Positions 3,658 to 29,123 of a DNA stretch of 32,778 nucleotides are shown here, piece by piece. Origin of the DNA: Octopus sinensis (Eukaryota). How positions within the stretch are numbered: the stretch's first letter is position 1; each line of letters begins with the position of its first letter. The notes beneath the pieces were generated by a model. That model was not told where the DNA came from. It did not search any database and saw nothing but the letters and a program-made list of their open reading frames with translations. Where the stretch lies: contig NW_021832760.1 in NCBI RefSeq assembly GCF_006345805.1, positions 1 to 32,778 of the forward strand, in the 5' to 3' direction. The translations under genes were made by a program, and so were the position numbers.

Positions 3658-3774
3658 CTCTTTTCCCTTGCGATAGTGCGCTCTAACTCTTTCTCGATCG
3701 CGTCGGCTTCCCGCCTTGAAGCTTTTAATTAATTAACTTGTAGTTATTGGTTGGTTTGTCAAAAAAAAAAAATA
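3658..3774 (+). mobile_element. 5'-truncated CRE-like retrocopy with poly(A) and target-site duplication
   Basis: 3664-3748 is a near-identical reverse complement of 2442-2525; A-run at 3761-3772; flanked by the 10-bp direct repeat AATTCTGCTC (3648-3657, 3775-3784). Confidence 0.85.
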
Positions 3775-4209: not shown

Positions 4210-5020
4210 AATAATATTCACCAACCGTGAACAAATGAGTTATTTTTATAATTTCGGCCTGGATCATTTTTGAACACGCGCAATATAGACTTTCTCATAG
4301 TGTTTGAATTTTTCTTTTCTTTGACAGCCAACGATCCATTAAATTTTACAATCCAATTATTTTTTAATTTTTGATTAAAAATTCGGGACTAACTGAATCA
4401 AATTCATACTTTGTAATCATAACATTAGTCATGAGTTTGAACAGTGCAGACACACGTGTTATAAAGCGTTGATCATTTGGAGATATGATTCTACTTTAAA
4501 ATAAACTTCCTGGAATGCTCTCTTATAAATTTATTAAAGATATATTGTACTAGCGTATCGAAATATTATTGGAAAATACTTCTTTTTTAATTTTGTCCCC
4601 AGTATTTACATTGATATTATTATAAATGTTTCATATCAACAACTATCTCAGTTTGAATATTTCACATTGTCCTATACGTTAAAAACTATTTCCGAAATGG
4701 TAATGATATTCATTATATCTCTAGGCTCCGTTTAAAAATCTTATTATTTCGAGATTTCATTCCGATGAAAGCAGATTACGGTAAAACAATATTCAATATT
4801 TTGCCACAACTCCAATATTGTTTTTTCATATGGAATGATGTAGGTTTGAATTTTTAGACTGTTTTTATGTAGTTTGAGATAATTTTCGATAAAAAACTTT
4901 TACAGGAGTTTGATTAAAAAAGAAATTCGAGAAATTAACCCACTTTTTTTGAATTTTTTAATTTAATGTGTTCAAAAATGACTCCTTAAAAAGTCGTTGT
5001 ATATGATTATGACTCTAGTC

Positions 5021-6400
5021 CAGAGCTTTTCAAAAAATAATTCTCGCGGCACACTAATCTTAAACAAATAATACACGGCACACATTAAAAATAAAAAAAT
5101 AAATTTTAAGATATGTAAAACTAAGTACAAAAATTGGTAATTTAATACCCAAATTTTTATTAATAATGAAAATGAAATCTTAATTATTATTGCTGTTGCA
5201 TATTCATCAATATCAGGTCGAATAGTTGACAAAGCCACCCGCATTTCAGCATCAATGTTACTCAAACTTTCGCGTTTGTTATATTTCATATTATGCAGCT
5301 TAGAAAAACCTGCTTCGCATAAATTGGTCGTTGAAAACTGTGAAATTATGGTCAGTGCTTGTTTTGATAAACTGGGATAAATGTTTCGAATATATATCCA
5401 GAATTCTCCAATGTCTAACTCCGTCATCTTTAATCTTAAGGATCGATCATTAATAGCGAAATAAGTTCTTCATTTTCTTAATAGACAAGTTTTTTGATTC
5501 AGGGACAAGAAAGGATTTCGTATCTTAAATATATTAAAAACAATAATAACCCAATCGAATTTTTCAATTTCTAAGTCTTGAAAATAAGCATCCATTTTGT
5601 TTTCCAAAATTATTAAATGTTTATTAATTAGTCCCTGTATCGAATCATCATTATATCCTTAGACGGGGCTCCATCTGTACATATACCAAATCAATTAACA
5701 AATGAAATATTATTGATATTAAAATAATCGTTTAATATCGTGAACATATCAATTGCTCGAGTAGTAGTTAAAAGAGGCTTGCAAAACAAGAATTGTTCTG
5801 TAATTTTCCCAGAATAAACAAATCGTATATATGCGAACAAATGTGCCATTCCCGAAATATCCGTGGTTTCGTTAAGTTGTAATGAAATCGAGTTTCTTTA
5901 ATAAAAATGAGACACTTTTTTCAATATTCTCCGACAAAGCATAAATCCGACGAGAAACAGTGTTATCTGACAAAGGTATCTTCATTATTTTTTGTTCATA
6001 TTTATGACCAAACATAGTTCGAGCAATAATACGACAAGCAGCAGGTTAATTTTGTGAGGTTTTAGTTGTTTTGCTATCAATTCTGAGATCAGGTATGAAC
6101 ATTTTAATGATTCCTTTGTGTTTACAAAAGTTTCATTGAACATCATTTGACTAGATTTACGATACATAGTAAAAACTAAATAATACTTGTATTGTTTTTC
6201 AAATGGATAAAATAATCCACAGATTTTTCGGAATAGTGCGGATGCTTGGAAGTAAAATGTCTCTTTAGTTTGCTAGGAACCATAGCATCATTTGCCAAGA
6301 CTTCCATACAAATTAAACATTGAGGTAGTTTATTTTCTATCATTGCATATAAATCCAAATGACAAATAAGAATTTTTATAAGAACGACGAACTGATTTAC
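5021..6400 (-). mobile_element. Degraded hAT/Buster (ZBED8/SCAND3-like) transposase
   Basis: BED finger PQCLICMEVLANDAMVPSKLKRHF; SYLISELIAKQLKPH; C-terminal FWIYI...FSTTNLCEAGFS...AEMRVALSTIRP; terminus CAGAGCTTTTCAAA at 5021 preceded by CTCTAGTC. Confidence 0.85.
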
Positions 6401-6479
6401 CCATAAGCATGTTGATACGCACGTTAGTAAAAAGTTAATAGATATTTTTATTTTTAATTAAAAATTGTTTAATGGCTAA

Positions 6480-6930
6480 CCAGAAAACATAAAAATCTCA
6501 TAATTCTTGAATATAATGTAAAAAAATCAATCCGGTAAGTTTCCGAATGTGTTCATATTTCAAAGAGTACAGTATGAAACATTATCAATAAATGGAAATT
6601 ACTAAAAAAACTATCAAAAATAAGCCAAGATCAAGACAACCGACAAAATATCATCTCGATAAATTTCATAATTAGACGAAAAGTGCTTAATAATCCGAGA
6701 TTGTCTTGTAACCAACTTTATATTTACTTGAGTAAGATCACCAGTATGCTAACAGACTGTCACCAATGCCCTAAGAATAGAAAAGGTTCTATAAATGTCG
6801 TCTACGTAAAGTTCCACTGCTTACTAAGAAACATGTCCATGCACTGTTAAAATATGCGAAAAAAATTTATTTTAAAAGAACTTTCTAAATAATATTATTT
6901 GGACAGATGCGACAAAAATAGAAAATTGTA
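6480..6930 (+). mobile_element. Tc1-family transposase N-terminal remnant
   Basis: Frameshifted translation NKPRSRQPTK...RRKVLNNPRLS...TVTNALR...RKVPLLTKKHV..LLKYAK...NIIWTDATKIE (degenerate WTDETKIE). Confidence 0.8.
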
Positions 6931-6949
6931 GATATCTTTGGTAGTTTTT

Positions 6950-7205
6950 AGAATGTAGATATATCGCAAATCTCATTAATCTTTGCAGTTATTCTAAAAT
7001 TAACAATAAATTCTATTGGATATTTTAAATGAAATTATTAATTTAAAGATTTTTGTAACCGTTGATTCCTTCTTAAACTATGAGCTGACGAATTATCAAA
7101 GTCGAAATCTGCGGTATAAATGGCTAATCTATTCCAAAATGTTTTTTATTACATTGGATCATCAATCATCCTCCAAGCAGACAATAGAAAAGAATCCTGT
7201 AATTG
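6950..7205 (+). mobile_element. Ginger2/KRBA2-type integrase core remnant
   Basis: RYIANLINLCSYSKINNKFYW|IFVTVDSF...KSKSAV*MANLFQNVFYYIGSSIILQADNRKE, degenerate versions of the DLID and LQSDNGKEF motifs, with an intron-like AT-rich spacer after FYW. Confidence 0.65.
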
Positions 7206-7335
7206 ACGGAGAGTTGTATCCGCATTAATAATAATTGATAAAGCAAAAACAGATAGAAACATAAATATGAAAATACTAGGAGATAACAAAATAATATGTT
7301 CTACTTACAAACTAGTTTTTGGGGTAGATAATTAC

Positions 7336-7392
7336 GGGCTTTTCTAGTACTTAGCTGGGTGACCGCCTGGAAACAGAGAGTGTCGTATTCTT
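7336..7392 (+). rRNA. 5S rRNA 3'-half fragment (pseudogene)
   Basis: GGGCTTTTCTAGTACTTAGCTGGGTGACCGCCTGGAAACAGAGAGTGTCGTATTCTT resembles the eukaryotic 5S 3' half (AGTACTTGGATGGGAGACCGCCTGGGAA...). The 5' half is absent. Confidence 0.7.
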
Positions 7393-8032
7393 ATTGTGTC
7401 CCCGTGGTGAACGTTTAGTTTGTCTTTTTTAATATAAATAAATTTTATTTTTAATTAAAAATTGTTTAATTAGATGAATTTTTAATAAAAGCATCGTTAA
7501 CTCTCGCACGTGTTATTTTTATTTAGTTGTACTTGTTTTTATTCTACTTTGTATTATTTTTTTTGTTTAATTGGATTCAGAAGGAATATTTCGTGATGCA
7601 GTTTCTTTTAATGATTAAGTTATCTGAAATTTCATCATTTTTGAGATATTTTTTGATTTTATTCCTTTAATCTGCTTCCTTCACTTTTTTGAGATTTATC
7701 GATTTTATTTTTTAATCCTCTTTTTTAAATCTTTTTTGAAATTTAATTGATTGATTATTTTATAGAGTGATATTGTATATAATAAAGTATTATATATGCA
7801 TTTATAATATGGGAAAATCATCCCGTAAATCGGTCAGTCCGTGCTGTTTGTTTAATCGCATTGTGAGCTAATCCAATAGCCTCACTCTGGGTTGTAAGTA
7901 TTTCGGAGTAATTGGAATTCATTATAAAAGAAAATACTGGATGTTTATCCAAATTAATACCATGCTTTATCCGGACCCAATTTTTGCAACTTATCTTGTA
8001 TAGGTGTAGAAATCTATTTCAAACGTATAGAT

Positions 8033-9004
8033 CAGCGGTTCTCAACCTTTTTTAGACTGGGGACCACTTTTGCACTATAAAATTTTGTGGGGACCACCTT
8101 AAATAAAATAAACATTTTTTGGTATTAGCGCACAATTTTTGGCCTCGTCAGGGCCAGGTTTAGACATGTTCGAATATTTATTATAAAAATAACATGAACA
8201 TTATGAAAATAACAGAAAATTTAATAGTAATTTAGTGAGATTTCTGATCTTGTTTGCTCAGAATAATTTTACTTATATCAGGCTCTATGTTCGACAAAGC
8301 TACTCGCATATCATCTTGTACCCGTAGTCTATTTCTATATTTTGTTTTTAGAAAAGTCAGACACGACATCGCCATTTCACAGTGATAAGTAGTGGGGAAT
8401 GCAAGTATTGATTCCAATGCAGTTTTACTCAAAATGGGGAATTCTTTCGCCATGACACCTACAATAAAAAGTAATTATTAATGAGAATACCAAATCTAAT
8501 GATGAAGTACATTTGAAAATAATCTGAGCAGACTGATTACATTGAAGTTCAATCAAGCTCTGCTGAAAATTGAGTTCCTGATATTCTTTAAATGAGGTCA
8601 AGAAAGGTTGAACGATCCAGTTTGGAATTGGGTCTTCAACAGGAAAATAATCATCAAATTTTGTCTTGAGATTTTTCAGATGTTTGATTATCAGACTTAG
8701 AAGAACATTATCCCGGGGTTGTGTCCGAGATGATATTCAAGCATTGGGAACATTGATGTTATTCCTTTTTTTATTTTCATTATCCACAATAATAACTTTT
8801 TTTTAAAGCCATTATTATTTGATTGACCTCGACAATTGATATATAAAGACCTTTAAATAAATTAATAAAAATTTTACCCTGCATTGACAAATTAAACTTA
8901 TTTAAATGTTAAAAATCGGCAAGATAACTTTAATATATTTTTATTTTTCGAAAATTCCTGGGGACCACTAAAAATTTTCTGGGGACCACGGTTGAGAACC
9001 GCTG
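8033..9004 (-). mobile_element. Internally deleted hAT/Buster element with intact ends
   Basis: Perfect 15-bp TIRs CAGCGGTTCTCAACC; 8-bp TSD GTATAGAT (8025-8032, 9005-9012); four GGGGACCAC subterminal motifs; transposase 3' part (NLSMQG|...KLLLW...MFP; FPTTYHCEMAMS...DDMRVALS). Confidence 0.95.
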
Positions 9005-9189
9005 GTATAGATTCTTCCATTGTAAACAAGTACAAGAATTACGGTCAAAAAATATAACAAGAAATCAAATATATCGATAATTAACACCAGAAGCACAACA
9101 GAAAAAAAAAACAACGTGCATAACACGTGCTAATTTTCTTCAAAAGACTTCCTTCGAGAATAAACTGTTAGTTTCTTCACTTAACTTTT

Positions 9190-9355
9190 AAATAAGACAA
9201 CGAAAATCGTTAAGTCCCAACGGCAAAGACGCAGTGTGCGTTGCCCCGAACAATGGCCAGGCCGATGCGCTGGCGGAACCAGAGGCCCTCTCTCGTGTCC
9301 TTGAGCCTCCTCCCGATGGACTGCCCGACCTCGTTGAGGAACGAGTCAGTCTCCT
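9190..9355 (-). mobile_element. CRE-clade non-LTR 3' fragment
   Basis: DSFLNEVGQSIGRRLKDTREGLWFRQRIGLAIVRGNAHCVFAVGT*, the typical QRIS.AI.RGNA C-terminus. Confidence 0.8.
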
Positions 9356-9359
9356 TTTT

Positions 9360-10225
9360 CGCTCCAAAGATTGATTTCTGTATTATTCAAAGAATCAATC
9401 TCTCCCAATAATTGATTAATTTCAGGCTTTGAATAATGCACATAAATTGTTTCGCTAGCAGAGGGTCCAAACATTTTCGAAAAGGAGTGTTTTTCGTAGT
9501 TGAATGTACCATATTATTGTATGCACTCGTTATTTCTTGCAGAATTCCGCACCAATTATAGTTATTCCCTGTAGATATGCCGGTAGATGAAAGCATATTT
9601 TTGAGGGTTTGATTCAGCCGTTCAACTTGGCCTTGAACCCAGGGACATCTTGCTCTTCCGCGTACGTGTTTTATATTAAATACATTGCACATTTCTATTG
9701 CAGTGGAGTTAACAAACTCTTTTCCATTATCCGTGTGCAAAATTAAGGGTTTCCCAAAAATAAGAATAACATCCTTGATTGAATTTAGTATAATGACGAA
9801 GATCAATAAGGTCAAAAATGTATCTCTCTCTTACTGAAAATGCCCGGATTGGCTGTATCACGGGTCTTGTATTCATTAAATTTTTGGCCTTGCATATCGG
9901 GCAAGAGTGCAAAACCCTCATAACTTCACATCTGTTAACTCCATAAACAATTTCTTTTAATAGAACCATTAGTCTATCACGCCCGGGATGACCATTTGAT
10001 TCGTATACTTCATAGATGAATTGGATTTTTTCATTCATCTCAGATGAAGAAAAAACACGCAATAACACTCCAGGTGCAGCACGATAGTATAATATCTCCG
10101 AAAATTTCTTTTCGATTGAGAACAAGAATCGAGATATGTTCCATTCCTCAAATATTCGATAATTTGTTGAACTCGCTCATGAGTAAGGTCACAATGTCGC
10201 ATCGCATGTCATAATTTGATATGTA
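9360..10225 (-). mobile_element. Ginger2/KRBA2-type integrase element, internally deleted
   Basis: GHPGRDRL...CPICK zinc finger; RERYIFDLIDLRHY; KPLILHTDNGKEF; HVRGRARCPWVQGQVERLNQTLK; YNNMVHSTTKNTPF. The 5' flank shares GTGACCTT and AATTATGACAT motifs with the 1681 element. Confidence 0.85.
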
Positions 10226-10353
10226 AAAATAAAATTTTTGAAAAATAACGAGAAATTTCTTGTTCCAAAAATAAAAAACATTCATGTTCGCAGAAAAACC
10301 AATGATTGCGTTATTGGTAATCTGGGAAATTTTGGTGTTATTATCTGTATCTG

Positions 10354-10669
10354 ATATTTTAATACTAAAAATTCATTACCGCTTTCGTCGGGAGCATTCG
10401 CAGAAAAAGTCACTCGTGTATCTGCCGCAAAAACAACTCCCCCCAAATATAGAATTGTTACTACTGTTGTAAAACTTATAGTATTCTAAAACAAAATTAT
10501 AAAATTCTAAGCCACCATTTGAAACATTTTTATCAACTGACATGTGGAATGTTCATATTTTAATACTAAAAATTCATTACCGCTTTCGTCGAGAGCATTT
10601 GCAGAAAAAGTCACTCGTGTATCTGACGCGAAAACAACTCCCCCCAAATATGGAATTGTTACACTATTG
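10354..10669. repeat. ~115-bp direct duplication (10354-10470 and 10555-10669) of the proteasome-beta-like exon plus part of its intron
   Basis: Near-identical blocks ATATTTTAATACTAAAAATTCATTACCGCTTTCGTCG...CCCCAAATAT, spaced 201 bp apart. Confidence 0.9.
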
Positions 10670-11699
10670 AGGATAGAATTTCTAATTTTATCCAATGGAA
10701 ATTTTATTTTCAATAAATGGTTTTAGTAATTCGTGTGGTGCATGTATATAAGGTCATTTACTTTTGTATTTGATTGCCAACAGCATGCTAAATTATTATT
10801 GGTTTCTTGATGATTCCATTGACATAATACTTAATCTTAAAAACTCTTGATCTATTTAAATATTACAGCTAGGTAGTCGGAGGGATTGTGAGGTAGTCAA
10901 GGAGCAGGCACAAATCAACAAATGTCTCGCAAGAGCTCACAGAAACTTACTAAGACTTAAGTTGTTTACGTGGTTTATCAAATTTGTTGCAACTTAAATT
11001 TAACAAAAGTTATACAATAACACAAGAACAAAACTAAACAATTATGGCTTCTTTGTTTTTGTTTATTTTCAATGATTTAGTCAAATCTTGGTACTTTTTT
11101 GATAATCGCAATACGAATGTCATGCTCAGGATTCAGGCGATATACTTTGACAAATGGAAGGGTAATGTTTTTTAGATTACTTTCTTCCTGTTAATAGGTG
11201 TTCAACGCCAGATCTTAATGCTCTTGCATATGTGCACTTACAGTTAATCACAGGCGGAATTGTGAACCCGAGGACCGGTGCAATACTCAGATGTTGAGAG
11301 AATGTGGGGGAGCGCAAAATAGCGCAATAAAAGACACAAGAGGACCGCAGACACTCATGGTGAATACTTTGTTGGTATACTCCGATTTAATGTGTAGAAT
11401 TTTTATGAGCAATTTGGACAACGCTTTCGACGAATTATTAGACGCAATCGTTGGATATCGCCCACCGACGTCACACTCGTCGAAACAACTGAACTTTTTG
11501 ACTTAATACTTTTTGACTTGTTCGGTATCGTCTAACACCACTAAGACGTTAAGAATTCAAAATTTTATTAAAAAAAATTAATAATATTTACAAATTCGGC
11601 ATTGTCATTTTTTCATTTATTTCAAATAATCAAAAAAAATTTCCACCATTCAGTTAAAGCCTTATTCGTGCAGCATGAAATCTACAAGTACCAAATTTC

Positions 11700-13062
11700 T
11701 TTACGAAAAGTAGGATTCATTGAATTGTCGACCACCTTTTCTAAGGTTGGGAAATTTGTGAGATTGTATGTTTCTAATCGCCGACGCCACAGAGATAATT
11801 TATTTTGAATGCAGTCATTTTTCGTGGCATTTGAGTATGCTAACATCTGTACCTTGAAGAGATAAACTCAAATTATTCATGTGAGTAAAAATGTCGGTCA
11901 AATAAACCAGCATCTGGATAAATTCGTGGGATTCCAAATATTGCAATAAATCATGATTATATTTATGAAGAAATAATTTTACTTCTTCTCTTAACTCAAA
12001 GATGCGGGGTAAGGCTTGACCTCGTGAGAGCCAGCGAATTTCGGTATGAAATAATAAAATAGAATGATTGTTGCCAAGATCACTCCAAATTGTTTTAAAA
12101 ATTCAATGGTTCATAGCACGACCTTTTATCCAGTTAATAAATTTTACAGTGGTGTTAAGTACATTTTTCAACAATGTGGGAGAGTTTTAACAGCTAATAC
12201 ATAGTGATGAAGAAAACAATGCTTAATCCCTATGTTCGGGATTTCATTCTTTAATAGCTCAGCAAAACCGGACATATTTCCCAGCATTGCTGGAGGACCG
12301 TCTGTACAAATAGACCCTATTGTCTGGATATCCAAATCACGTTTCATAAAAAAATCTCTAACAATGTTAAAGACATCTATTCCTTTCGTGATTATTTTTA
12401 ATTCTTCACAAACCAAAAAATCTTCTTTCAATGCACCATCATGAAAATACCTCACTAGTGCAATAAGTTGACTACAATTAGATATAAGAAAGGACTTGAT
12501 TTGATCTCTGTAATAATTTGAGACAAAATATCACTGCTTAGCTCACATATTCGACTGTGAATTATATTATTGGAGAGCGGAACTGATTCAATCTTGTCTT
12601 GACTCTGTTCCGAGTATTAATGAGACCATTTCCAATGCACATGGTTTAATCAAATCTTCTCCGACTGTATGTGGCTTTTTAGACTTTGCGATGTTATAGT
12701 CCACTTTATAAGAGGCAAGCAAAATCGGTTTATCAAGATATACAAATCCTAAGTTAGGATGAGTCACTTGCGAATCATATCGAGCTCTCTTGATTTTTAG
12801 AGATTTAAATCATTGCCGCTACTATTAGTTCCACCATGTTTATTTAGAAAGTGCTGTTACAGTTTGGAGGGTTTCATATTCTGGTTAGAGAGTATAGCCT
12901 CACATAAGAAATATTTGGGCCTTTGGAGATCATCGATTTTAGTAAATGTAAATCCAAAACAGACATAATCATCATTCCACTTTTTCTAAAAAAATTAACT
13001 ATAAATCTTAAAAATCTCGCACCCCCTAAATTTTTGCTGGCACCCCCGGTTGAAAACTGCTG
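11700..13062 (-). mobile_element. Degraded hAT/Buster transposase with 5' terminus
   Basis: KKPHTVGEDLIKPC; ICTDGPPAMLG; HCFLHHYVL; HTEIRWLSRG; YLTDIFTHMNNLSLSLQG; TIR GGTTGAAAACTGCTG ends at 13062, followed by ATTTAGTG. Confidence 0.9.
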
Positions 13063-13659: not shown

Positions 13660-13875
13660 ATTAATTGCGTTTTTTTAGCCAGCGGCCTGACGGATTGCCA
13701 AACTGTTCTCCCTAAGTACGGCGATCAAAAACCGCTGGAAAAGCCAGTGCACCTCCAGAGGATCGTGAGTGCGCATGGATATTTTTACCCCGAGCTTGCG
13801 GAGGAAGTTTTCTGTTTTCAGACCAAGAGCACCCGACGTCTCCAACGCAATCGGTAGCATGAAAAACTTATTTGC
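13660..13875 (-). mobile_element. CRE-clade non-LTR 3' fragment
   Basis: MLPIALETSGALG...FLRKLG...WLFQRFLIAVLRENSLAI*. Confidence 0.8.
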
Positions 13876-14177
13876 GTTATTAGTAAAATGGCAGACTAAA
13901 TGCATAGCAAGTTGTCCAATATGTTACAAAATTAATATTTACATCACTAGCAATCGATTATAAATTTTTTTGATTAATTTAATTTTAACTCGTCTGTGAC
14001 AGAAATAGCAGCGTAATAAAAATCAGTACTATTTTCCTAAAATTTAAACAGATTCTTATAGTTTTACTGTGACTGTGATCGTGATTTAAATCTGCGTTTT
14101 TTGCAAGTTTTTTCGGAATAGAATGCTTGTTTTCTTAATTTCATAAACCAGTTGACTTGACCAGTAAAATATATCAA

Positions 14178-14478
14178 TTCCCATACTAAATGGGTGGAAT
14201 CAATAAAAAACTACGTGGAATCAATAAAAGTGGGCATAAACTATGATTACTTTAGTTAAAAATATTATAGAATAAAATGTCACGTAAATTATTAGAAGAG
14301 AAATATCAGCTCACGTGAAAAGAGTTTGGTGTTAATTCCATTAGTTTGGTATTAATCCCACTTAGTTTTCTATTGAGGCCACTTAGTTTCCTGGTAATCA
14401 TACGTCGTTTGTCATTGAGTTCATTTATTTTTCTATTGATTTTACTTAGTTTCTTGTTAATCCCATTTAGTATGAGAA
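14178..14478. mobile_element. MITE with ~21-bp periodic subterminal repeats
   Basis: TIRs TTCCCATACTAAATGGG / CCCATTTAGTATGAGAA (1 mismatch); ~21-bp period units (CCACTTAGTTTTCTATTGAGG-like) create the spurious heptad ORF at 14306-14524. Confidence 0.65.
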
Positions 14479-14632
14479 ATGGTATATTCTTCATAATACT
14501 TCTGTGAATACAGTTTCTATACAATATATTTCACCGATGTCAATTGCCAGAACAATAAACTGATTATTTTTATGTTAGATAAAATAAATAGACGAAAACC
14601 TTAATTGAAGTTTGGATAACTATTGAAACAAG

Positions 14633-15697
14633 TTTTTTTTTTTTTTTTTTTTTTTTTTTATTAAAGAATGTTAAAAGAAAATGAGAGAACAAGAATCCGA
14701 ACTAATTAAGAAGATCATTGTCTCCAGAAAACCCTTTCCATTGAACATCCAACAGGGAGTGTGCACAAGTCTGAGTCGTCGCCGTTATGTTCGGAAAGGG
14801 AGTAGAACCGACTCCGTTACAACAGACATATGCATAGATCTGAAGGAAATCCTTAGATTAGGTGATTCTGGTGGCCAACGCAACACACGCGTGTAATTAA
14901 GAAGATCATTGTCTCCAGAAAACCCTTTCCATTGAACATCCAACAGGGAGTGTGCACAAGTCTGAGTCGTCGCCGTTATGTTCGGAAAGGGGAGTAGAAC
15001 CGACTCCGTTACAACAGACATATGCATAGATCTGAAGGAAACCCTTAGATTAGGTGATTCTGGTGGCCAACGCAACACACGCGTGTAATTAAGAAGATCA
15101 TTGTCTCCAGAAAACCCTTTCCATTGAACATCCAACAGGGAGTGTGCACAAGTCTGAGTCGTCGCCGTTATGTTCGGAAAGGGGAGTAGAACCGACTCCG
15201 TTACAACAGACATATGCATAGATCTGAAGGAAATCCTTAGATTAGGTGATTCTGGTGGCCAACGCAACACACGCGTGTAATTAAGAAGATCATTGTCTCC
15301 AGAAAACCCTTTCCATTGAACATCCAACAGGGAGTGTGCACAAGTCTGAGTCGTCGCCGTTATGTTCGGAAAGGGGAGTAGAACCGACTCCGTTACAACA
15401 GACATATGCATACATCTGAAGGAAATCCTTAGATTAGGTGATTCTGGTGGCCAACGCAACACACTAATAGAAACCACGAGCGCAACCGCGTGTAATAAGA
15501 AGATCATTGTCTCCAGAAAACCCTTCCATTGAAGATCCAACAGGGAATGTGCACAAGTCTGAGTCGTCGCCGTATGTTCGGAAGGGGAGTAGAACCGACT
15601 CCGTTACAACAGACATATGCATACATCTGAAGGAAATCCTTAGATTAGTGATTCTGGTGGCCAACGCATCACAGTAATAGAAACCAACGAGCGCAGC
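14633..15697 (-). repeat. Poly(A)-tailed tandem array of about five 191-214 bp units encoding 64-aa repeats (retrocopy-like)
   Basis: The same AAGATC motif starts at 14711, 14902, 15094, 15286 and 15500. T27 at 14633-14659; in-frame TAG at 14704-14702; 23-nt GT..AG segment at 15464-15486 absent from the three downstream junctions. Confidence 0.9.
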
Positions 15698-16109
15698 TTT
15701 ATCCAAGATATTTTACTTTACCAGTAGTCAATTTAATTAATAGAAATGCACAACACAAGAAGAATATAGCGTGTGTACACCTAGTTGAATCGGGAAAATG
15801 CATAAATACGGCCTGCTTGTCAGTGAATTAGATTTCATATTGCTAAATTGAACATTGTACCTATGGTGCTAACGTAAAATGGTATTGCAGGCAATTTTTA
15901 CATGCGCTCAAAGTAGATAATTCAATAAAGGCATATATTCAGATTATTTTGATAAGAAAAACCCTCCTAAAAATACGAGTTGAATACAGAATTGGATGGA
16001 TTGACAAAGACATCTGTTAACAGATTGAGATAAACAATTTGATAATCTAAAAAGGACACTTTAAAAGATGGAATTACTAAGACAAGAATGTAGAGCTAGG
16101 AAGTGAGAC

Positions 16110-16940
16110 TTATTATTATTATCCGCAACTTCCGTAGAAACATAATAGTTATATTTCCACACGTGCGGCACTTGAAACGATTTTCTTGATAATCCTTGTC
16201 CAACCTCCCCTGTTGCATGCTAGACTTCTCATTGCGTTCAGATCCTCCCAATTTTTAAGCTTGCGGTTGATTGATTTGAAGTCAGCATCCAGCACCTCCG
16301 GTAGAGTGCTGCGCGGGCGTCCCCGAAATTTCTTTTCACTAGCGGCAAAATATTCTTCCATTGCCAAGTTTGCGGGTGACATCAGGTCCATCCGTAGGAC
16401 ATGTCCAAACAGTCTCCATCGGGCTTCCATCACATCCAGAGTTACAGGTTGCGCTGAGCATTTACGGTAAAGTGCCCCGTTGTTGATCCGGGTCGGCCAT
16501 TGTACCCCACATAATATACGCAGTTGTCTTCGGTGGGAGGAGTTAAGGTTTTTAATTTCGGAAGCAGAGATCCCCCAACAGGAGGAGTTGTATAGCAAGA
16601 CCGGTTTCACAAATGCATTGTAGAGGCGCAAACGAAGCGCAGTCGTTGCCGGCCTGTTAGCCAACCAATTCGTTTTCAGCCTGTTCAACGCGGCTGTCGA
16701 TAGTACTTTCCTCCGGGTAATGTCCTCACTATCTCCGAGGAGTGTGCCCAGTTTTCTGGAACGTCTCCATTCATCATCTAGTCTTGAATTCGTGCGTGCG
16801 ACTTCCGTGATTTCCGTTTTGGTTGTGTTCACAGTGAGGAACCATTTTCCAAGCTCTGCAGGGGAAACATCAAGTAACCGCCTCAGGGCTGCTGTGTCGT
16901 GTGATACAAAATCCACATCGTCAGCGTATACAATTTCGGT
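16110..16940 (-). mobile_element. 5'-truncated RTE-like LINE (reverse transcriptase C-terminal part)
   Basis: EIVYADDVDF catalytic motif near 16935-16905; uninterrupted 255-aa ORF with VNTTKTE, LYNAFVKPVLLY, RWRLFGHVLRM, RGRPR; short 3' UTR ending in (TAA)n at 16110-16121. Confidence 0.9.
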
Positions 16941-17037
16941 TCGAAATCAAATCTGAATTTTTATGAAATAGTTAAATAGTATTTTTTTATTGTATCACAT
17001 TATATAATAATTAAACTACGCGGGATCATATTATAAT

Positions 17038-19560
17038 ATGGAAATGCGTTGTTGTGATTCCATAATCAAAAAACTATTTGATTACCAACGAGACGGTGTT
17101 TTATGGATCCAAAAGACCTTACAAAAATCAAAAGGGGCAATCCTGGGTGATGAGATGGGGTATTTTCCATATTAACTAATCCAGACTCGGAAAAACTCTT
17201 CAAGCTATCGCATACATCCAGTCTCTATATGAAGAAGACACTTCTCTTCTCATTCTAATAATTGTTCCTGCCAATCTCCTCAAGAATTGGGAAAATGAAA
17301 TTTCTAAATGGTCTGTTATTTCTTAACATTATTTCCAGGAAAACTACATTTCCATATTATAAATTCTACGGAAGAGAAAAGCTAGAATATTTCCGTCGTT
17401 TTTTGAATCGTCGGGGGGTCCTTTTGACGACCTACACCACAGTCCTCAACTCTGCAGACAACCTGAGAAACACATTTTTGTACTGTTTTTTTTCTTAATA
17501 GGACTTGATCGTAGTGGATGAGGCACATGTTCTCCGAAATCAAACCAAATCTGCTAAAATCCTTAATTCTTTGAAGAGTCATCGACGATTAGCCCTCACT
17601 GGGACACCTTTGCAGAACAATCTTATGGTCTTTATTTTAGGCTATTCTAGGAATTGTGGGCACTTGTGGATTTTGTTACGAGTGGAACCCATCAATTGGG
17701 GACGATGAAGCACTTTAAGGAAACTTTCGCTACAAAAATCAGCAGAGTGTGTTATTTTCTTTCATTTTAGGCAAATGAGCGAGGAACGAGTGCAGTTGTC
17801 CAAGGATTGGGGGAGACTCGACTTAGAAAACTTAAAGAAATGGTTGATCCTCTCATTCTGCGGAGAACTAAAGACCAAATTGAACTTAAATCGACTGGTC
17901 TGTCTGAAATCCCACCAAAACTGGATTTGGTATGTTGGACTTTTGAATGATCATCAAATATCAATCTATCAACAATTATTGTCCTCCAAACAAGTCAGAG
18001 AGGTATTCTCTTATGTAATCCCAGTCAATGACTTCGACGAGGTCCCCACTCATTGAGATTGTCAATTTGAAAAAAACTTTGTGACCATCCTGACCTTCTT
18101 CATATTCTCTGTGGTGGAAACATACTTAAAGAGTCCAATGGGGATCCTGATGTGGAATTGCTGTATATTTTTGGTTGATTTTAAGTTACCGTCGGTTGAA
18201 ACAGCAGTCCCCTGATCCTCTCTCCCTCATCAAGGGATCTGGAAAACTGGCATTTGCTGTCCGATTGCTTAACACTTTGGCAAAAGATGGACATCGGACA
18301 CTCGTTTTCTCTCGATCTCTGAAAGTTCTTGACATTCTTGAGAAGATTCTTCTTAGCCAAGTTGGAGTTTTCTAAAACATTTCAGGGTCACCGATTACTT
18401 CGAATGGACGGAAATGTCCAAATGGAAAGGAGAGGAGAAATTGTGGACGCCTTTCAAAACCCAGTAAAATCCCCAAATTTTTTGCTTTTGACGACAATGG
18501 TTGGAGGAGTTGGACTTACTTTGACCTTTGCGGACAGAGTTTTGATATGTACATCAATTTTGGGTTTAATTTAAGACGATCCGAGTTGGAATCCTGCTAG
18601 TGATAGTCAAGCCATTGGAAGGGCTCATAGAGTCGGTCAAACCCGCCCAGTGGTTTATAGGCTAATCAGTTGTGGGACCGTCGAGGAGTTTATTTATCGT
18701 CGGCAAATATTCAAAGACACTATAAACCGAGGAGTAACTGTCCCTGGGGATACAGAAAATACATCACTTAACCGACATTTTTCGTATCTTGAACTCTACG
18801 AGCTTTTCAAGTTCAATATTGAGGATGCTCGTGTTTCGAGAACCAAAGAACAGTTGAACGAGCTTACTTCCTCTATTCCATCAGAGTTTGCGGACTGTCT
18901 GAAGAGTTTAATTGGTTTTCCTGGTAAAATTCGTAAAATGTCAGTTTTAGATTGTTATGGTGTTTCAAATCATGAATTAACATTTTCTGGATCCAGCGAG
19001 ACTTTCGTGAATGAAGAGGGAACCAAACTCACGATAGACCACCTTGATCAATTGGCAGTTGATTGTTCTTCTATTCCTAATTCTGAGTGCAAACAAGAAG
19101 GTAATCCCGTTTTATTTGATTTTTCAGTCATTTCTATTTCAGATGTTTGTCCATCCAGAGAATCGTCTTTAGAAGAACGTTTTTCTAATGCTTTGATATT
19201 TGAGAGTGAATCTTCGCAAGACGGTATTCTGTTTTATTTTAGTTTAAAGGTGGCATGGTTTTAGCATCCGATTCTTCGAATGCTTCTGATGTGAGAGACG
19301 TGGGTGACTCAGAATCGTCCTTGTTGTCTTCAATTGCTGATAGTTCTGGTGGGTTATTGATATCGTAGAATTATATGTCGAGGATAGTTTTGAGGGAGCT
19401 GACGTGGGGTATGATTGTTCGGGGATTAGGTATTTGACATTTGTGACGTTGCAGAGAACTAATGAGTACTGGTGATTACTTAACAGCGATGGAGCTTACT
19501 CTTGAAGCACTTGACGTTTTGCCTGATGATACAGGTCTTTGTAAATGGCTATCCAGTTAA
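17038..19560 (+). CDS. ERCC6L: ERCC6L/PICH SNF2-family DNA translocase (multi-exon; several homopolymer indels)
   Basis: GAILGDEMG|[74 protein letters not shown]; C-terminal TPR-like [25 protein letters not shown]; introns of 22-28 nt (first at 17160-17184). Confidence 0.88.
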
Positions 19561-20400: not shown

Positions 20401-21199
20401 AGCAATTAAGTCTCGGGCAGTTTCTTTCGGCGAGGAATGCGACAATCTTGTCCTACCCTTCCCTCTTTCTTCTCTCAGGGAGTCTGACTTATAAGAAATG
20501 GCATCGGACAGAACGCCGGATGATCAAGCGAGTGAATCGGAAGCTCCTCGAATTTCTTAAATAATCTTATTACGAAAAAATTATTGCGTCTGCTTTCAGT
20601 CGATTCTCCTCTTCTCGAGACCGAGAAATGTCTTCGACGGGTACACTTATCCATTTTTCAGGGAAAGCCATTTTGTGGTTTTTCGAGTCGATTTAATTGA
20701 CTTCGCCGCTCTAGGAGGGAGTTTTATACTCCGGGGCAGCTTTCCAATGTTCTCTTGTCACGATGACTGGATATAAGCTTGCGTGATTCCTGACTTGTAA
20801 GGGTTCTGGTATTGTTATAGAATCAGGATGTTATTCCATCCCACGTAAAATAAATAAAATTTATATTTTCATTTTTACATTATAGACAATAACAAATATT
20901 AGGTAAGTAAGTAATTGTCGTTATTGGGACATTACAAAATCATGTCTGGTTTCGCGGGATCGGTCTATCTTTAAATGGTGTAGTGCGAACCGTAAAATAT
21001 AATGACGAAGATCAATAAGGTCAAAAATGTATCTCTCTATTTTAAAAAATTAAAAAATAATAATTTTAAGGTAAATACATTTCAAAATTCGACTTTGTAT
21101 ATAAATGAAACGTGCTTGTTGTAAACTTCATTAAGTTAAACTCATAAAGATGTCCAATTCACACCAAGTTAACACAGAGAGACTTAAGCAAAAAATATG

Positions 21200-21500
21200 G
21201 TATTAAAACTATCACTATATCGGATTTCCAGAAAAACTATAATAAATATTTGGACATATGTATGACAATTCAAACAGCAAGAAAAAATATTTTAATTGCA
21301 ATTATAAGTTCACTCGGGAACGGTTTTGGATCTCTTTACTATGTGATATCTGGACCTATCATTCAGGCGAAAGCAATTTTATGTGTAAAATCCCTTGGCT
21401 TTGATGATTTCAAATCATCCAATGGCTGGCTAGATTCCTGGAAGTGATACTATTCCATTGAAGCTTATTCCAGTTGTGGTGAAAAAGCAGATGTTGGTAA
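21200..21500 (+). mobile_element. Tigger/TIGD-like transposase remnant (CENP-B HTH)
   Basis: ISGPIIQAKA...LGFDDFKSSNGWLDSWK...CGEKADV. Confidence 0.8.
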
Positions 21501-21619
21501 TATTGGTAATCCAGATAACGATTATACAAGTTCCACTTTATTTATTTACTCATTTTTAAAAACTTAACGTATTTTTTCGATTATGATACGCAGACTTTTG
21601 CCATATAATTAATTCCAAT

Positions 21620-21800
21620 AGATTGGGTGCGCTTTATAATCAATAATCAAAAGAAATTACAAATGTTCGACAGATTGTCAAACTTACTTTACGGACGGAC
21701 ATTGTGCAATTTCCAACTTTAAATTCAAAATACACGTATATTAAAGATCAACCCTCACAAACATCACAATCATGCATTAATAAGCTGGAAAGTAGAATGC
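21620..21800 (+). mobile_element. Possible Mutator/FLYWCH zinc-finger remnant
   Basis: Frameshifted YKCSTDCQTYF...HHNHAL pattern only. Confidence 0.25.
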
Positions 21801-22029
21801 GATGGAGAAAATAGACTATGCCATTATTTTTCCTGTAACAGTATAAAAACACTATGACTTACCCTGACAGCGCTGGTTGATTGATTGATTTTCGAGGTCT
21901 GCCACTACGAATATAAATTTTCGATTTTACGTCATCTCGTAAAGCCGATCGAAAATTATAAAGTCGGAACCACCACTACCCCTTCTACCCCCGTACTCGT
22001 CTCAGTTCAGTTTTGGATTGTACAAGCAA

Positions 22030-22280
22030 CATGGCATCAAAAAGAGCAAGTTGTACCGCAGCGTTCAAAAGTCATCAAAGTAGCAGAGGGCAACAGAGAA
22101 GCTGGAAGAAAATTCAATATTAGTCAAATTAAAATCCGTGGTTGGAGAAAGAAGAAAAACTCATCACTGAAAGAAAAAGCAACAGCAAAAGCATCAGGAA
22201 GAAAAGCAATGTTCCCAGAGTTCGAGGAAGAACTTCTTAAAAAGATTTCTGAGAGAAGAGCTGCAAGGTGTATCATCAAT
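22030..22280 (+). mobile_element. pogo (POGK-like) transposase 5' fragment
   Basis: MASKRASCTAAFK..VIKVAEGNREAGRKFNIS...IRGWRK (Brinker-type DNA-binding domain) and GRKAMFPEFEEEL. Confidence 0.8.
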
Positions 22281-23783
22281 TTCCGCACACCTTACATTTA
22301 CAGAGCAGAAGGTGCGTTTGCACATGCATCTTTAATGCACTTTTTTAAACCATATCCTCTCCCACAATAACTGCATAGCAATAATGTGCTGCTTTCAGAT
22401 TTTTTCTTTTGTAATTCTTTATTTTTCAACCCTTTCTTTTTTGACATCCGTATAGAATTCCCAGACGGTTTTACATCTTGTTCCGGTAAAATTTCTTTTA
22501 ATTTAAAAATCCCTTCTTTTTTGATTGAAATTTTTGTTGATATTTTCGATCCACTGATAGTAATAAATAATACATCAAGTTGTTGAAATGTTAGATGTGC
22601 AGGTCTATAACAGACTGTCAAAAGAATTTATAATCTAAATTCCCGCATCAGGCATTAAATTATTTTTTACAAAGATCAAAGCAAATTATTGAAAGAATGT
22701 CTCGTAGCAATTATTAGTAGCGACTTTTTCATGACTTTGTTTTGGTATGTCAGTGGTATGTTACAATCAATCCAAATCATTAATGATCCCTTTTTGGTAT
22801 TTCTTCAAATAATATAAATAATTGCTCAATAATGATCATGTGCAGGTTAGAAAATTTAACATTCTGAGATAGCTAGTTTTGTTAATACATTGCATTTGTC
22901 AAGTACTAATTTCTCAATAGATTCTTGAATTAGACAAGTATTGAAGCAGATGTAAATGGCATTAACACAATTAACTACCAATTGACAGCGCATTTAGAAA
23001 AATTTCCGTAGAAAAGATAGAATTTATTTTTGGTCGCCTTTTTCCTAATCTTTTTTATTATTCAAAAATAATTTTTCAATAGATGACACAAGTTGGAAGA
23101 ACAAAGCTGAAAAAATGAAAACAAAGCTTGAAAAAAAGCTGCGGTTTAGGTATTTAATTAAAACTGTTAATTTTTTACTTTCTCAATTCGATCCCTGTTG
23201 GTTCTTGACCACTTAATTAATTTTTAGTTATCTATTTAATGTGTTAGTTATCTGTTTTTCTGTTATTTATCTGCTTCCGTTGATGATAAGTTTGGATGAC
23301 AATAAAAAATGTGCAGAGACAGTCGTTAAAGGTAGTTGGCTTATTTTTAGAGAGCAAGTGCTTTTTCGATGGCTGTGGGATGCTCAAGGGTGTAAGTAAG
23401 AAAAAAATCGTTTTCCGAGGCTTTAACGTCGTTATGATGCTCTAGAAATTAGCTTTTAAACCGTATATAAACAAACATTAACGTTTTTCAGAAATTCTCT
23501 GTTAGAGTGAAAGCTACCACAAAAAGAATGAACATAAAACAGATTGTTGAAAATTTAAGGAAAATATAATGACATTAGAATTTATTGACCAAAGGACCAG
23601 AGTAAACCAGTTAATTATAATCCCTGTGATCCTCGATTCAATATCCCAAAAAATAATGAAGAAAAAGTGACTATTTGGTCACCATTTAAACTAGCAAAAT
23701 CGCTAGGAATAGAATATTTTTAGATAATATATTTCTATTATTTTTATTTTAATATTTGTGTCTTACAAAATAAATATTATCAA

Positions 23784-24620: not shown

Positions 24621-24798
24621 CATTTACAGAGTTTTTCCAGATGTTTTTTGGCCAAAAATTAAACTCGGTAATTTTTAATTTCGTTAAAATCGTGAAAATT
24701 GTTGTTCATTTTTCGCATTTAAATAACACAAATTAAGAAATCGAGATCAAAAAATAGTGATATTCAAAAACAAAATTGAAACCAAAGTAAACCAGAAA

Positions 24799-27646
24799 CT
24801 ACAGAACAGAATTGAAATAAGCCTCTAAAGCGGGATATGTCTTTGGAATCTCATCTCCAGCTCACCAATTCTCTTCTGCACACTGAGCAATAGTCATTCT
24901 ACTCCCTCAGATCTACCCGAAAAAAATTCCTAAAATACTAACAACTCCTCTACATTAAAATCCCTCAATTGATCTGCCGTCTTCAAATAAGTCGACACGA
25001 TCTACCAACTAATAACAACCAAATACTTTAATAGAATTAGTCATTGTCGAATTCTGAACTGCACTAAGCAAATAGTCATAATTTTGTTTATAAAGCGTCC
25101 ACAGTTCTGACGAATTCTCAGGCCGTACTCCCAGTCCTCTCAACAGATAGACAATGTCCTGAGAACGCAGTTTGCCCTATTAATGCCATAACACTTATTC
25201 CAACACTCGTAAGGATTTCAAATATCCGAACAAGCCCTCCCGGACATTTCAAACACCCGATTGCCTGAATTATGTTCTTTCGGGACTCTGCCCTCTCAAC
25301 CTTCTCATAATACTCCATCAGGTCGTTCAAATCCTTCAAAGTCCCACAAGACATGACACATTGATATATCTATATATTTAATCTCTTTTATGATACTGGC
25401 AAAAGTATATTTGGGTCAACTGGCTACGGAAGCATCTGTCTGGAGTATCCTTTCGAATACTTGCCTGCATTGAGATTGGAATTGGTCATCCCCGTAACGT
25501 GCCATCATCCCAAATACAACATTACGAAGAAGAGAGATTTCATGTGTTTCATTCGGCTGGACATCCCACCCCACATATTGGAATATTCCAGACATCAGTA
25601 GTCGGCGTACGTACAGTGTAAACTGACCGTCTACAGGAGTGCCACTCACAATCCTGGTTATGTCACGAACGAAATCAGAAATCACTTCCCAAATGGAAAG
25701 TTCGTATGTCTTTGTAAACATTTCTGTCAATCGGAAGAGCATTTCCATTGGAATATATCCACACAGCCCCTGAAATAGAACAATGTGAAATACCAAAGCA
25801 TATGTGTCACTGAGGAGAGAAATACAGTCGTTTATTGGAATGTTGGACACAGAATCCAACAATTTGGCAAACAGTGGAGCGGAGTATTGAACTCGGAAGA
25901 ATCCATGGACTCCTGCGTTGAGTTTAATCCACTGAGAATCGATGACATCTCTGAGAATAAACTCTTGTCGAGGCTGTTCCAAGAGCACATAATTAATATT
26001 CCCAGCTCCACTCTCAGTAGAATAACCTACTGGAATGTTCCAGAATGTTCTTTCCCCGTTCTCGAATGTTCCAGAACCAGTCCTTCCAGACAATAATGTG
26101 AATCGTTTTGTTCCAATACCATAACAAGAGATCCATCCTGGGCTGAATCACAACTCACGGACACGACGGGATATCCTGGCATATGAATAAACGTATTCAT
26201 TATCCCTTCCACATTAAAACCACATTCTTAAAAGAATTCCACAAGTCACGTGTTTCAGTATTTTGGTAGGAATATTTGGTAAGGTAAGACCTCAGACTAG
26301 TCCTGAATCCAGCCTCCCCAATGTAATAAAAAAAGCATAGCTATAACTGAGGCCCCTTTGGAGTAGGAAAATCTCATCAAATATTCATCAATCTTGGAAG
26401 GGTCATCAACGGCGACTTCAACAGGGTGGGTGTTTAAACGAGATCCACATTCATAGAATCCATAAACTCACCTGTTAGAAATCTTGCCTGGAAATTATAT
26501 TCCGGATAACATCGGGAAGAACAGAAATATTCCATAAAAGTAGCAAATCCTCATTCAGCCACAAATCAGTCCACCACCTCTACCACAACTATATTATAAA
26601 TAATACCATCGTTACTAAATTCCCAAACCACATATGTGCCAACTCATGTGCTACAACAGTCGTTACGTACGACTTGGTTCTAGCCGAACTAAGCGTTTGG
26701 TCAACAAGGATTGTGGTCTCTCTGAATGTGACCAACCCCCAATTCTCCATTGCCCCTATTTTGTCACCCATTTTTACAAACCTGCCGAAAAATCGGGGAC
26801 AGGGACAAGATCGAGCTTAGGAAGTGGATATTCCAAGTCGAAAAAATTTCATAAAACGACAAGATTTGACCGCTACATCCAAAGCGTACATTCCCTCTTC
26901 TGTCCGTCCCACTGGGGTGTATATCCTTATTCTGACTCCCCGATCACTCCGTCTTCTCCACATATTCAAAATCCCAATAATGTAGGCCACCAGGTACGTA
27001 GACATTCGAGGTGTTGTTCCAAACTCTTTTAGGAGTCTTCCATCCTCAAGACCGTTGTTTTCTCAACTTCCTGTGATTTATTGGTAGGTTAAAGACCATA
27101 TTTGAAAGGACAGTTCTATTTGGAGGGGATATTATGGATAGGCGAAATTGAGCCTTCATGTCGGTTCATCAAGCAAAAAGGAAAAGCTCTTCGTGCGTCA
27201 ATCGGCTAAAAAAATTGATCAATTTTGAATACCTCGAATTGGGTGGACGCCCCGTAAACTTCTTCGCCGTTAAGATTGTATTTATTCTATAAAATCCCTC
27301 CATTTTATTCCCGATTAGACCATTGAATTCCAATATAATGTTAGCTGGTCCGGGATTCTGGCAAATTAGCAAAAATTGGTGTACTAGATTATCCTGGAAG
27401 AGCAAGTCGACTGTCTGAGCTCGGATGTTGTACTCCCATGTGGCTGGAAGTGTCTTGTTCCTTGAATAATGGCTGCTTTTGTGATTTCGAGGTCACGGGA
27501 ATTCAATCTGACGAAACGGCAAGGTTCATTAATGACTGAATTTATGTCAACTTTTCCGGAAAGGTGAAATTTATTAAGTCCGGATTAATGAGTATGTTGT
27601 ATAAAGAGGGGAGTACTGTTCGTGGTAGTCTACTGGCTGTTGACAT
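24799..27646 (-). CDS. NPEPPS: Puromycin-sensitive M1 aminopeptidase (multi-exon; many single-base indels)
   Basis: [24 protein letters not shown]; STQFE|PIDARRAFP; [10 protein letters not shown]; AG|[12 protein letters not shown]; [17 protein letters not shown]|[10 protein letters not shown]; [17 protein letters not shown]. No N-terminal membrane anchor; introns about 23-27 nt. Confidence 0.88.
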
Positions 27647-29123
27647 TTCTAATATAGATCACAACGTGTAAGAGTTAAGTACTGTTGCAATAATACAATT
27701 TTTTTATTTAGGTTTGCCGGTATTAATACAAAAAATATGTAAATAAATTAATTCTAATTTGTATAATTTTTCTGATGAACTTTATTCAATATTCACAAGA
27801 ACTTAACAATTTTCATAAAATGTTCTGAAAAACCTGTTGAAGTTTGTTTTTTTAATATGTCTCTATGTTAGAAAAGTTCAGAAAGGCTCTGTACTAATCC
27901 GAAAAAATAGACTTGATTGTAAACTATCCTCATGTCTTATTATATCGACTTATTTGCCAACGTCTGACTAATAAACAAGAAATTTATTCAAACGCGAAGT
28001 TTGAATTCAAACGATGTTTTTTTGCTACGAAAACATTGTATATAGCGCACTGAAGTAACCGGTTTTCCAAATTGCTATAGTAATTAAAATATTTTAATAG
28101 CCTAAGACTGTCTGATTAGTTGTTTTATAAAAAAGCTACATAGAATGAAGGTATTTTGTATGTGAATGTATGCAATCTTCAGAAGTTGAGGGGCATAATA
28201 GAGAAAACCTGTATTTTTATTACTAAAAGAAATGCTGTGAAATTTATGCCGATATAATTCAATCCTGAGTTAATTTTTAATTTTTCAATTCATTATTTTT
28301 ACCGATTTTGGTATTCTTTTATCATCATCGGATTTTGGCACATAATAACGATAATCGATTCTTAGACAACTTTATTGGGATTCGAGAATCTTTTTTTAAA
28401 AACATTAATTTCAAAAAATTAACAACAGCTCAACTCATCCGAAAGTTAATCGGCACGACCGGAATTTTTAAAAAAGTACACATTTTTTGCAGATAAGTTT
28501 CTTTCACTCATTTAATAATTTGAACATATCAATTAATTAAATGAAATATTTCGTATTTTAAAATTTTAATTGGATTTCCAATACACTTTATTTCGAACAT
28601 AATCAAAAACTATTGAAATATATAAATCACCGTCTGATAAAATATAGAGAATGCCTCCCGATACATATAGGAAAAAAATTGGGATAATATGTTGAAAGGC
28701 AACGAATTCAAATGGTTTATTGACAATAACAGTTTTATAATCATTTAGGAACAATGATTGAAATGTGAGAAGAAGCAATGCAAAAATTACATGATGTAAT
28801 TTTATTTACTAATTAAAAATTAGGGCAGCATCAAAAAAGGATTATAGAGAAAATTCTGATAGAGACGATTCTAAAGTCATAATTGTTTAAAATTTAAATT
28901 CTAATTAATATTATATTTGGGCTTTTTCATAAATACCTCGTCGAGACGAAGAGAAAGTTTTAAGTCAATAAAATTTGTTTTTATAAACTTAGTTCAACAT
29001 GTTGTCCTAAATTAAAAATAACTTTTAGTTATGACTATCACTCGATTAAACAACCATCACGTATTTCAATTTTAAATAAATCTAAAATTTAATAGCATAA
29101 GGGAATTTCTTCACTCTATTAAT

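Follow-up and report, generated by a model that had tools for sequence, protein, structure and literature searches.

A 192-bp tandem array with splice-precise loss of a short intron-like segment: probable RNA-templated DNA in a contig of likely dicyemid origin

In retrocopies made by LINEs, as portrayed in the available part of PMC5470649, introns are lost exactly, a 3' tail with an A-run is present, the 5' end appears truncated and the genome carries a LINE reverse transcriptase. CircRNA-derived pseudogenes have a genomic, non-colinear junction bounded by splice sites, which joins the end of an exon to the start of an upstream exon; within the accessible text of Dong et al. 2016 (PMC4897178) they are mostly without poly(A) and enriched for flanking LTRs. 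The non-LTR retrozymes of metazoans, described in the accessible parts of PMC7229834 and bioRxiv 10.64898/2026.07.22.740005, consist of tandem monomers of 150-450 bp, arranged as dimers to multimers. They are non-autonomous, occur in two length variants about 20 nt apart (225/245 in a coral), and a circle has been proposed as their template. For dicyemids, parasites with tiny introns, small circular contigs and extrachromosomal circles, seen as short closed de Bruijn contigs, are described in the available part of PMC6543705. Exon repetition by trans-splicing, e.g. in the polymorphic mucins of Schistosoma (PMC2576457, in the part available), gives a head-to-tail exon join in RNA.

The array described here lies on the minus strand of a 32,778-nt stretch of DNA, the whole of which was analysed and is called the window below (contig NW_021832760.1, filed under Octopus sinensis). 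It appears to behave as a retrocopy does, while its junction looks like that of circRNA-derived pseudogenes and its units are laid out as in non-LTR retrozymes. As in LINE-made retrocopies, the intron-like segment is lost exactly, the 5' end appears truncated and the genome has a LINE reverse transcriptase, and a 3' tail with an A-run is read from the window sequence. It differs from the retrocopies of PMC5470649, as far as that account was available, in being a head-to-tail multimer in which only some of the units have lost the intron, in the absence of a target-site duplication and of a detected parent protein, and in the many copies of one short unit. Its junction may be of the circRNA-pseudogene kind, whereas it ends in an A27 tract and contains several rounds of the unit. 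Its 192/216-bp units have the size, multimeric layout and pair of length variants of non-LTR retrozymes, but in contrast to those in the accessible part of PMC7229834 their boundaries appear spliceosomal and no hammerhead motif (CUGANGA) was found on either strand; none of the twister-like motifs was convincing. The missing hammerhead (against retrozymes), the missing target-site duplication (against retrocopies) and the poly(A) (against circRNA-derived pseudogenes) mean that the array is therefore no plain member of these kinds. Its unit resembles the dicyemid circles in giving short closed contigs and, unlike them, is placed in a chromosomal tandem array with flanks; DNA circles alone could not excise an intron exactly. 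Compared with the Schistosoma mucins, the same join is fixed in DNA, and no mucin-like or other protein evidence was found. A SINE is not indicated by Rfam (no tRNA, 7SL or 5S head), nor by a simple scan for Pol III motifs, in which no box A-like motif was seen in sequences that do not include the full 5' end of the family. In the open-access literature, no report of an intron-bearing, splice-joined tandem retroelement was found.

Read along the minus strand from 15697 to 14633, a degenerate 24-nt segment is followed by unit 1, a GT..AG segment, units 2-5, the tail and A27 (Table 1). The five units of 192 bp are arranged head to tail; the GT..AG segment is retained between units 1 and 2 and absent from the other three junctions (15272/15271, 15080/15079 and 14888/14887). 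Tandem Repeats Finder reported a period of 192 with 4.0 copies and 99% matches at 14703-15464, and no further copy of the unit exists elsewhere within the window. Internal units each end in TTAATTA-CACGCG and the terminal unit in TTAATTA-GTTCGG. The TAG is situated at 14704-14702, 42 nt before the A-run, and AATAAA at 14662-14657. The array with its three segment-less junctions, the in-frame TAG, the untranslated stretch of about 42 nt and the A27 overlapping AATAAA had all been described in a sequence-only reading of this DNA, and every one of them was recovered in place. The same holds for the absence of a target-site duplication, the longest word in common around the array being 6 nt and not adjoining its ends, and for the decayed segment copy at the 5' edge, over which a contig from a public run shows 0 differences. 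Other copies of the 5' flank run into sequence that is absent from the window; the element itself is likely 5'-truncated in the window, because other copies of it reach further upstream.

Table 1. Features of the tandem array in the window
Feature	Position in window	Strand	Remarks
5' edge, degenerate 24-nt intron copy (GC..AC)	15674..15697	-	exact X1 contig 15666-15726; loose ends 15695, 15697
Unit 1; 187 nt in the assembly, with one base missing at each of five places, likely through assembly errors	15487..15673	-	family-majority letters at three diagnostic sites
GT..AG intron-like segment, retained; 23 nt in window, 24 nt in public contigs	15464..15486	-	
Unit 2	15272..15463	-	majority letters change to array's own letters between 15413 and 15334
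Unit 3	15080..15271	-	joined to unit 2 without segment
Unit 4	14888..15079	-	joined without segment; one private letter
Unit 5	14703..14887	-	joined without segment; ends TTAATTA then GT, G completing TAG
Head-to-tail join TTAATTA/CACGCG	15487..15499; again at 15278/15277, 15086/15085, 14894/14893	-	likely donor-to-upstream-acceptor splice junction
3' tail, AT-rich (27% GC), starts GT, AATAAA runs into A tract	14660..14702	-	present also in X1, X6
A27 tract	14633..14659	-	read from window sequence

The polishing of the contig is uneven. Contigs of the public runs contradict the window at one T missing from the GT..AG segment, at five single-base gaps in unit 1 and at one in unit 5. When the aminopeptidase gene of the window is aligned to a 98%-identical protein (P0003), 16 of 20 diagonal changes amount to 1-2 nt. 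As the contig contains many indel errors, nothing can be read from single-base gaps in the array. Within the same gene (26100-27560, minus strand), about 15 single-base shifts against P0003 fall in 1.45 kb, followed by none over 229 residues.

The sequence-only reading had proposed that the missing segment is an intron of 23 nt, the size of host introns. Its position stood; its length did not, since X1 and X2 contigs have 24 nt. The host value also needs widening, 23 nt being merely one within a range of 22-28 nt (median 25) in 19 host introns, which were placed by eye from the reading frames of the helicase and aminopeptidase genes, several with alternative boundaries. Among 2365 possible deletions of 20-30 nt in the unit, eight (0.34%) are equal to a GT..AG excision and two have in addition a T-rich 3' end, a property of 12 of the 19 host introns. 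Microhomology at the loss is 1 nt only. Slippage between the GTTGCG repeats was rejected as the cause of the loss, as it had been from the letters, because it would give a different junction. Host introns start with GTTG in 2 of 19 cases and end in TAG in 10 of 19. With 48% GC against a mean of 27% and a maximum of 36% in host introns (n=19), the segment is a GC outlier, as had been cautioned. It may be a weak, often retained intron. The first half of the segment resembles the following exon start (GTTGCG..TTGG, window 15441-15486, minus strand), a likeness which suggests a possible young intron born from local duplication.

Eight public runs (X1-X8) were listed, none recorded as RNA, and six of them (not X5 and X7) were compared as contigs over two single-unit stretches; the comparison skips 14623-14671 and hence the A-run. 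X1 is probably a DNA run; its contigs include the two flanks, and the window itself may have been assembled from it. X1 holds the segment-less join at a depth of 349 and the segment-bearing join at 341, and the loss of the segment is therefore more than an assembly slip. An exact contig over the 5' junction of the array (depth 63) and the 3' tail are present in X1 as well. The earlier reading had made its case depend on intronless junctions in DNA data, and this probable DNA run carries them. For X2 one unit contig of 246 letters (216 + 30) was obtained, closed on itself with the segment included, while X3 and X4 each gave one contig of 222 letters (192 + 30), closed without it. By our reading, the X4 contig terminates at the point of divergence between the spliced and the unspliced form, and the X2 contig ends at CACGCG. 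In X6 the unit is found together with the tail as far as 14687 and with the final 10 letters of the segment, and no contig of X8 matched the compared stretches. From the contigs of X2, X3, X4 and X6 it follows that both forms exist outside the window's assembly, the segment-less form in at least two studies. These four runs cover the unit and not the adjoining flanks compared, which would suit RNA, but missing cover is not evidence. Short closed contigs of dicyemids can equally arise from tandem DNA, according to the available part of PMC6543705. Not every variant is splice-made, since a deletion form without splice-site boundaries (join 15496-15670, depth 289) occurs in X1 as well, a mini-unit in which two copies of the segment region enclose about 28 nt of exon. 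RNA-templated DNA, as first suggested from the letters, gains from X1, in which both junction forms coexist and the removal is splice-precise; we consider such an origin of the intronless units very probable.

A second splice-like junction, missed by the first reading, is the head-to-tail join TTAATTA/CACGCG itself. At a loose end on the minus strand in X1, other copies begin with T6AG-CACGCG (consensus of three contigs, median loose length 9, agreement 0.97), and the G and the T-run of T6AG are likely on one and the same contig. Given this start, the join connects the last letter ahead of GT with the first one that follows AG; the GT side of this non-colinear junction is read in the window and the AG side only in the three-contig consensus. 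None of the 19 host donors starts with GTTC. A DNA crossover in the TTAG common to both ends was rejected because it would retain a G which the join lacks. Some form of splicing probably made the join, and back-splicing, trans-splicing and forward splicing across tandem gene copies all yield the same product.

The unit is probably not confined to this locus. One of its contigs in X1 has a depth of 1672, whereas depths of 40-221 are reached where contigs lie on junctions and flanks, a ratio which hints at 8-40 copies, depth not being a copy number. The tail reaches a depth of about 1200 in X1 (our arithmetic) compared with 221 for the 3' flank of the window copy. Depth aside, X1 has at least five contexts of the unit (two tandem joins, the internally deleted form, the T6AG start and the truncated start of the window copy), plus a diverged tail copy, a 130-nt contig at depth 42 in which 74 further letters follow the tail. 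The several junction types and ends support a family, in line with the retroelement considered possible in the sequence-only reading, and the assumption of a dispersed poly(A)-tailed family can be made with good, though not full, confidence. Most units of this family appear to keep the intron.

Within the window the copy falls into two parts. At three diagnostic sites unit 1 reads G/T/C, unit 2 G/C/G and units 3-5 C/C/G. The letters of unit 1 are carried by X1, X2 and X6, and X3 and X4 match unit 1 over its body. Three letters are common to the 3' half of unit 2 and to units 3-5; in the summed depth of X1 the window's letter accounts for 0/7271 at 14759, 0/1672 at 14837 and 51/3624 at 14746. 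X1 contigs retain other variants at depths of 40-51, and contigs drop rare variants, so absence is no proof. Because these private letters are common to the 3' units and absent or rare in X1, the intronless 3' part would thus descend from one variant template. The switch of letters (15413-15334) lies directly 3' of the last kept intron and fits a template switch, cDNA conversion, later unequal crossing-over or an assembly mis-join.

The contig's host is likely a dicyemid parasite, to judge from its tiny introns and from a near-identical protein filed under an octopus. Dicyemid introns have a median of 27 bp and those of myxobolid myxozoans are similarly tiny, as stated in the available parts of PMC6543705 and PMC13644364, respectively. 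In the window, introns of 22-28 nt are found in an SNF2-type helicase gene (17044-19560, plus strand) and a puromycin-sensitive-aminopeptidase-like (M1) gene (24780-27646, minus strand). P0003, which is the protein filed under an octopus, is the only match of the aminopeptidase at E 1e-10; in its public gene model at least one tiny intron is left unspliced. A myxozoan host, the first guess from intron size, was dropped as less likely given this near-identical protein.

A reverse transcriptase fragment was detected at 16149-16946, 450 bp from the array (Pfam RVT_1, E 0.0015, below cut-off). It is part of a non-LTR retrotransposon 3' fragment (16100-16946, minus strand; C-terminal part of the reverse transcriptase), which ends in a short (TAA)n and, sharing its strand with the array, lies upstream of it. 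By its motifs we take this fragment to be RTE-like. In a motif, decayed fragments at 13675-13923 (minus strand) and 29100-29420 (plus strand) presumably match the restriction-like endonuclease found at the C terminus of CRE-type retrotransposons; Pfam gave no match for 13675-13923 and tblastn none between the two. Each is followed by an A-rich stretch, and they are possible donors of a poly(A)-type reverse transcriptase. Just beyond the 3' flank of the array lies an MITE-like element (14168-14488) that has inverted arms of 27 nt and, inside, repeats of 21 bp; its summed depth in X1 is very high. A GC-richer stretch is flanked by two inverted copies of about 70 bp (2400-2760 and 3660-3740), and numerous fragments in the ORF list at 4900-12600 and 21100-22400 are presumably hAT-, Tc1/pogo- and integrase-like. 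A 3' tail in common with a partner LINE was sought within the window and gave no convincing match. In D. japonicum, LINE ORF2 is multi-copy according to the accessible part of PMC6736024.

The model to which we commit, and to which we give an even chance, comprises a back-spliced join, reverse transcription of the LINE type and the loss of a weak intron in a fraction of copies. The founder would be the 3' end of a Pol II transcript, with a T6AG acceptor, the 6-nt CACGCG, a 24-nt intron, a 186-nt exon, the tail and poly(A). Back-splicing would have connected the GT inside the terminal TAG with the upstream acceptor, and the first head-to-tail join would have entered DNA when the back-spliced junction was reverse-transcribed. 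In the 216-bp arrays, each exon would be flanked by the acceptor of its intron and the donor of the next, and therefore forward splicing or back-splicing would both give the 192-nt form. A LINE-type reverse transcriptase, assumed because of the fragment at 16149-16946 and the multi-copy LINE ORF2 of D. japonicum, would write the joined, intron-stripped units into the chromosome; the poly(A) tail would likewise indicate a LINE and not a Penelope-type enzyme. Poly(A)-primed reverse transcription would then spread the arrays, often 5'-truncated. The window copy, likely a young one of a multi-copy retroposon family, would have two parts: the 5' part keeps the intron and has the majority letters, whereas the 3' part is intronless and stems from one variant template, through rounds on a circle or later unequal crossing-over. 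Counting against the model are the missing target-site duplication, the other continuation of further 5' flank copies, the GC content of the segment, the GTTC donor, the equal origin of closed contigs from tandem DNA, the unremarkable circular fold and the fact that no parent locus was seen. Among the routes offered earlier, the retrocopy of a partly spliced RNA and the back-spliced circle are both compatible with the data and probably act in sequence. The third, 3'-biased cDNA replacement, fits the letter change in unit 2, and a mis-join of two real loci fits it equally.

As the arrays retain usable-looking splice sites, they could regenerate circles. Repeated rounds on an RNA circle as the routine mode of spread are nevertheless a tentative proposal that we regard as rather unlikely. 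An equally doubtful extension is a ribozyme-free counterpart of retrozymes, in which the splice sites of the 24-nt intron would release 192-nt RNA circles from the element's own tandem arrays, to be reverse-transcribed repeatedly into new arrays, the enzyme changing over to them from a linear template primed at its poly(A). The fold of the unit has a z of -2.47 when linear and an unremarkable -0.4 to -1.75 when circular (minus strand). Rfam gave no match in the window at gathering score and two chance matches at E 3.3; a supposed resemblance to U3 snoRNA was dropped, Rfam being without a match. A scan for exact 22-mers found none in JGI metagenomes and none in IMG/VR.

The strongest competitor, for which we see roughly one half of the support given to the model, is that a tandem or repeat-protein gene, of longer period and with a second intron (tail ... 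T6AG), gave rise to a partly spliced mRNA of which the array is an ordinary processed copy; forward splicing would make the head-to-tail join, without a circle. The letters at both junctions would be exactly those expected under the committed model, and one frame is open through both the 192 and the 216 forms and stops at TAG, where GC drops from 46% to 27%. The poly(A) is typical of linear-mRNA retrocopies in the available parts of PMC4897178 and PMC5470649, and the diverged tail with its 74 further letters in X1 would also be in keeping with this explanation. Against it, a frame of this kind is open by chance in 650 of 5000 shuffled circles (13%), the frame shows no host codon bias, its codon score being reached by 177 of 660 open shuffled frames (a test of low power, for which one training stretch out of 15 had been taken in the wrong frame, with 5 stops), and 3 of 5 variable sites are non-synonymous. 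A phmmer search against 1.84 billion representatives returned just two weak matches, both to unrelated repetitive sequences, and no Pfam family was found for the single unit. Pfam matches on the 272-aa repeat frame were discarded as summed weak repeats, with 0 stretches passing and none left for one unit, and the best score of the repeat frame in the Atlas comparison (0.77) was uninformative. The term "exon array" of the first reading is thus not upheld in its protein-coding sense, given the open frame in shuffles, the lack of codon bias and the lack of a homologue. Most units of the family also appear to keep the intron, and X1 has arrays with the head-to-tail join in which the small intron is kept, which argues against such a copy.

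A false assembly join, made through the repeat between two real loci (an intron-bearing one at the 5' side and an intronless, poly(A)-bearing one at the 3' side), is somewhat less probable still and would be compatible with the committed model: the RNA origin would stand and the polarity would be an artefact. The contig is indel-rich, unit 1 has five gaps against one in units 2-5, no target-site duplication is present, the letters switch inside unit 2, and no public contig spans either compared stretch. The array of 1.06 kb should, on the other hand, be within reach of a single long read, and the density of errors also shifts abruptly inside the aminopeptidase gene, where 229 residues are without a frame shift. 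In-place intron loss, by recombination of an intronless cDNA with a resident intron-bearing array and 3'-biased conversion of its 3' part, seems improbable. It would explain why majority letters give way to private ones within one unit of the last kept intron, why a target-site duplication is not expected and why X1 has the 5' junction of the locus without the private letters; however, two kept and three lost introns fall in this polar order with a chance of 1 in 10 under independent splicing, and the head-to-tail join and the other loci are left unexplained. A plain minisatellite with DNA-level indels, or with a segment gained in some units and coincidental GT..AG boundaries, is very improbable, because the non-splice deletion form in X1, the high GC and the exon-like first half of the segment, as after local duplication, are set against the 0.34% chance for such boundaries, the host-fitting size, the 1-nt microhomology, a second junction also beside GT and probably AG, and an AATAAA tail with an A-run.

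The array bears on two processes, reverse-transcriptase-mediated intron loss and circRNA retrotransposition, which are usually inferred from old, fixed differences. Here near-identical intron-bearing and intronless units coexist in one population and in one array, which makes both processes directly testable. If circles are the template, the circularisation of this tandem retroelement would be the work of the spliceosome, in the place of a ribozyme. The unit could also be one source of some of the short circular contigs in dicyemid assemblies.
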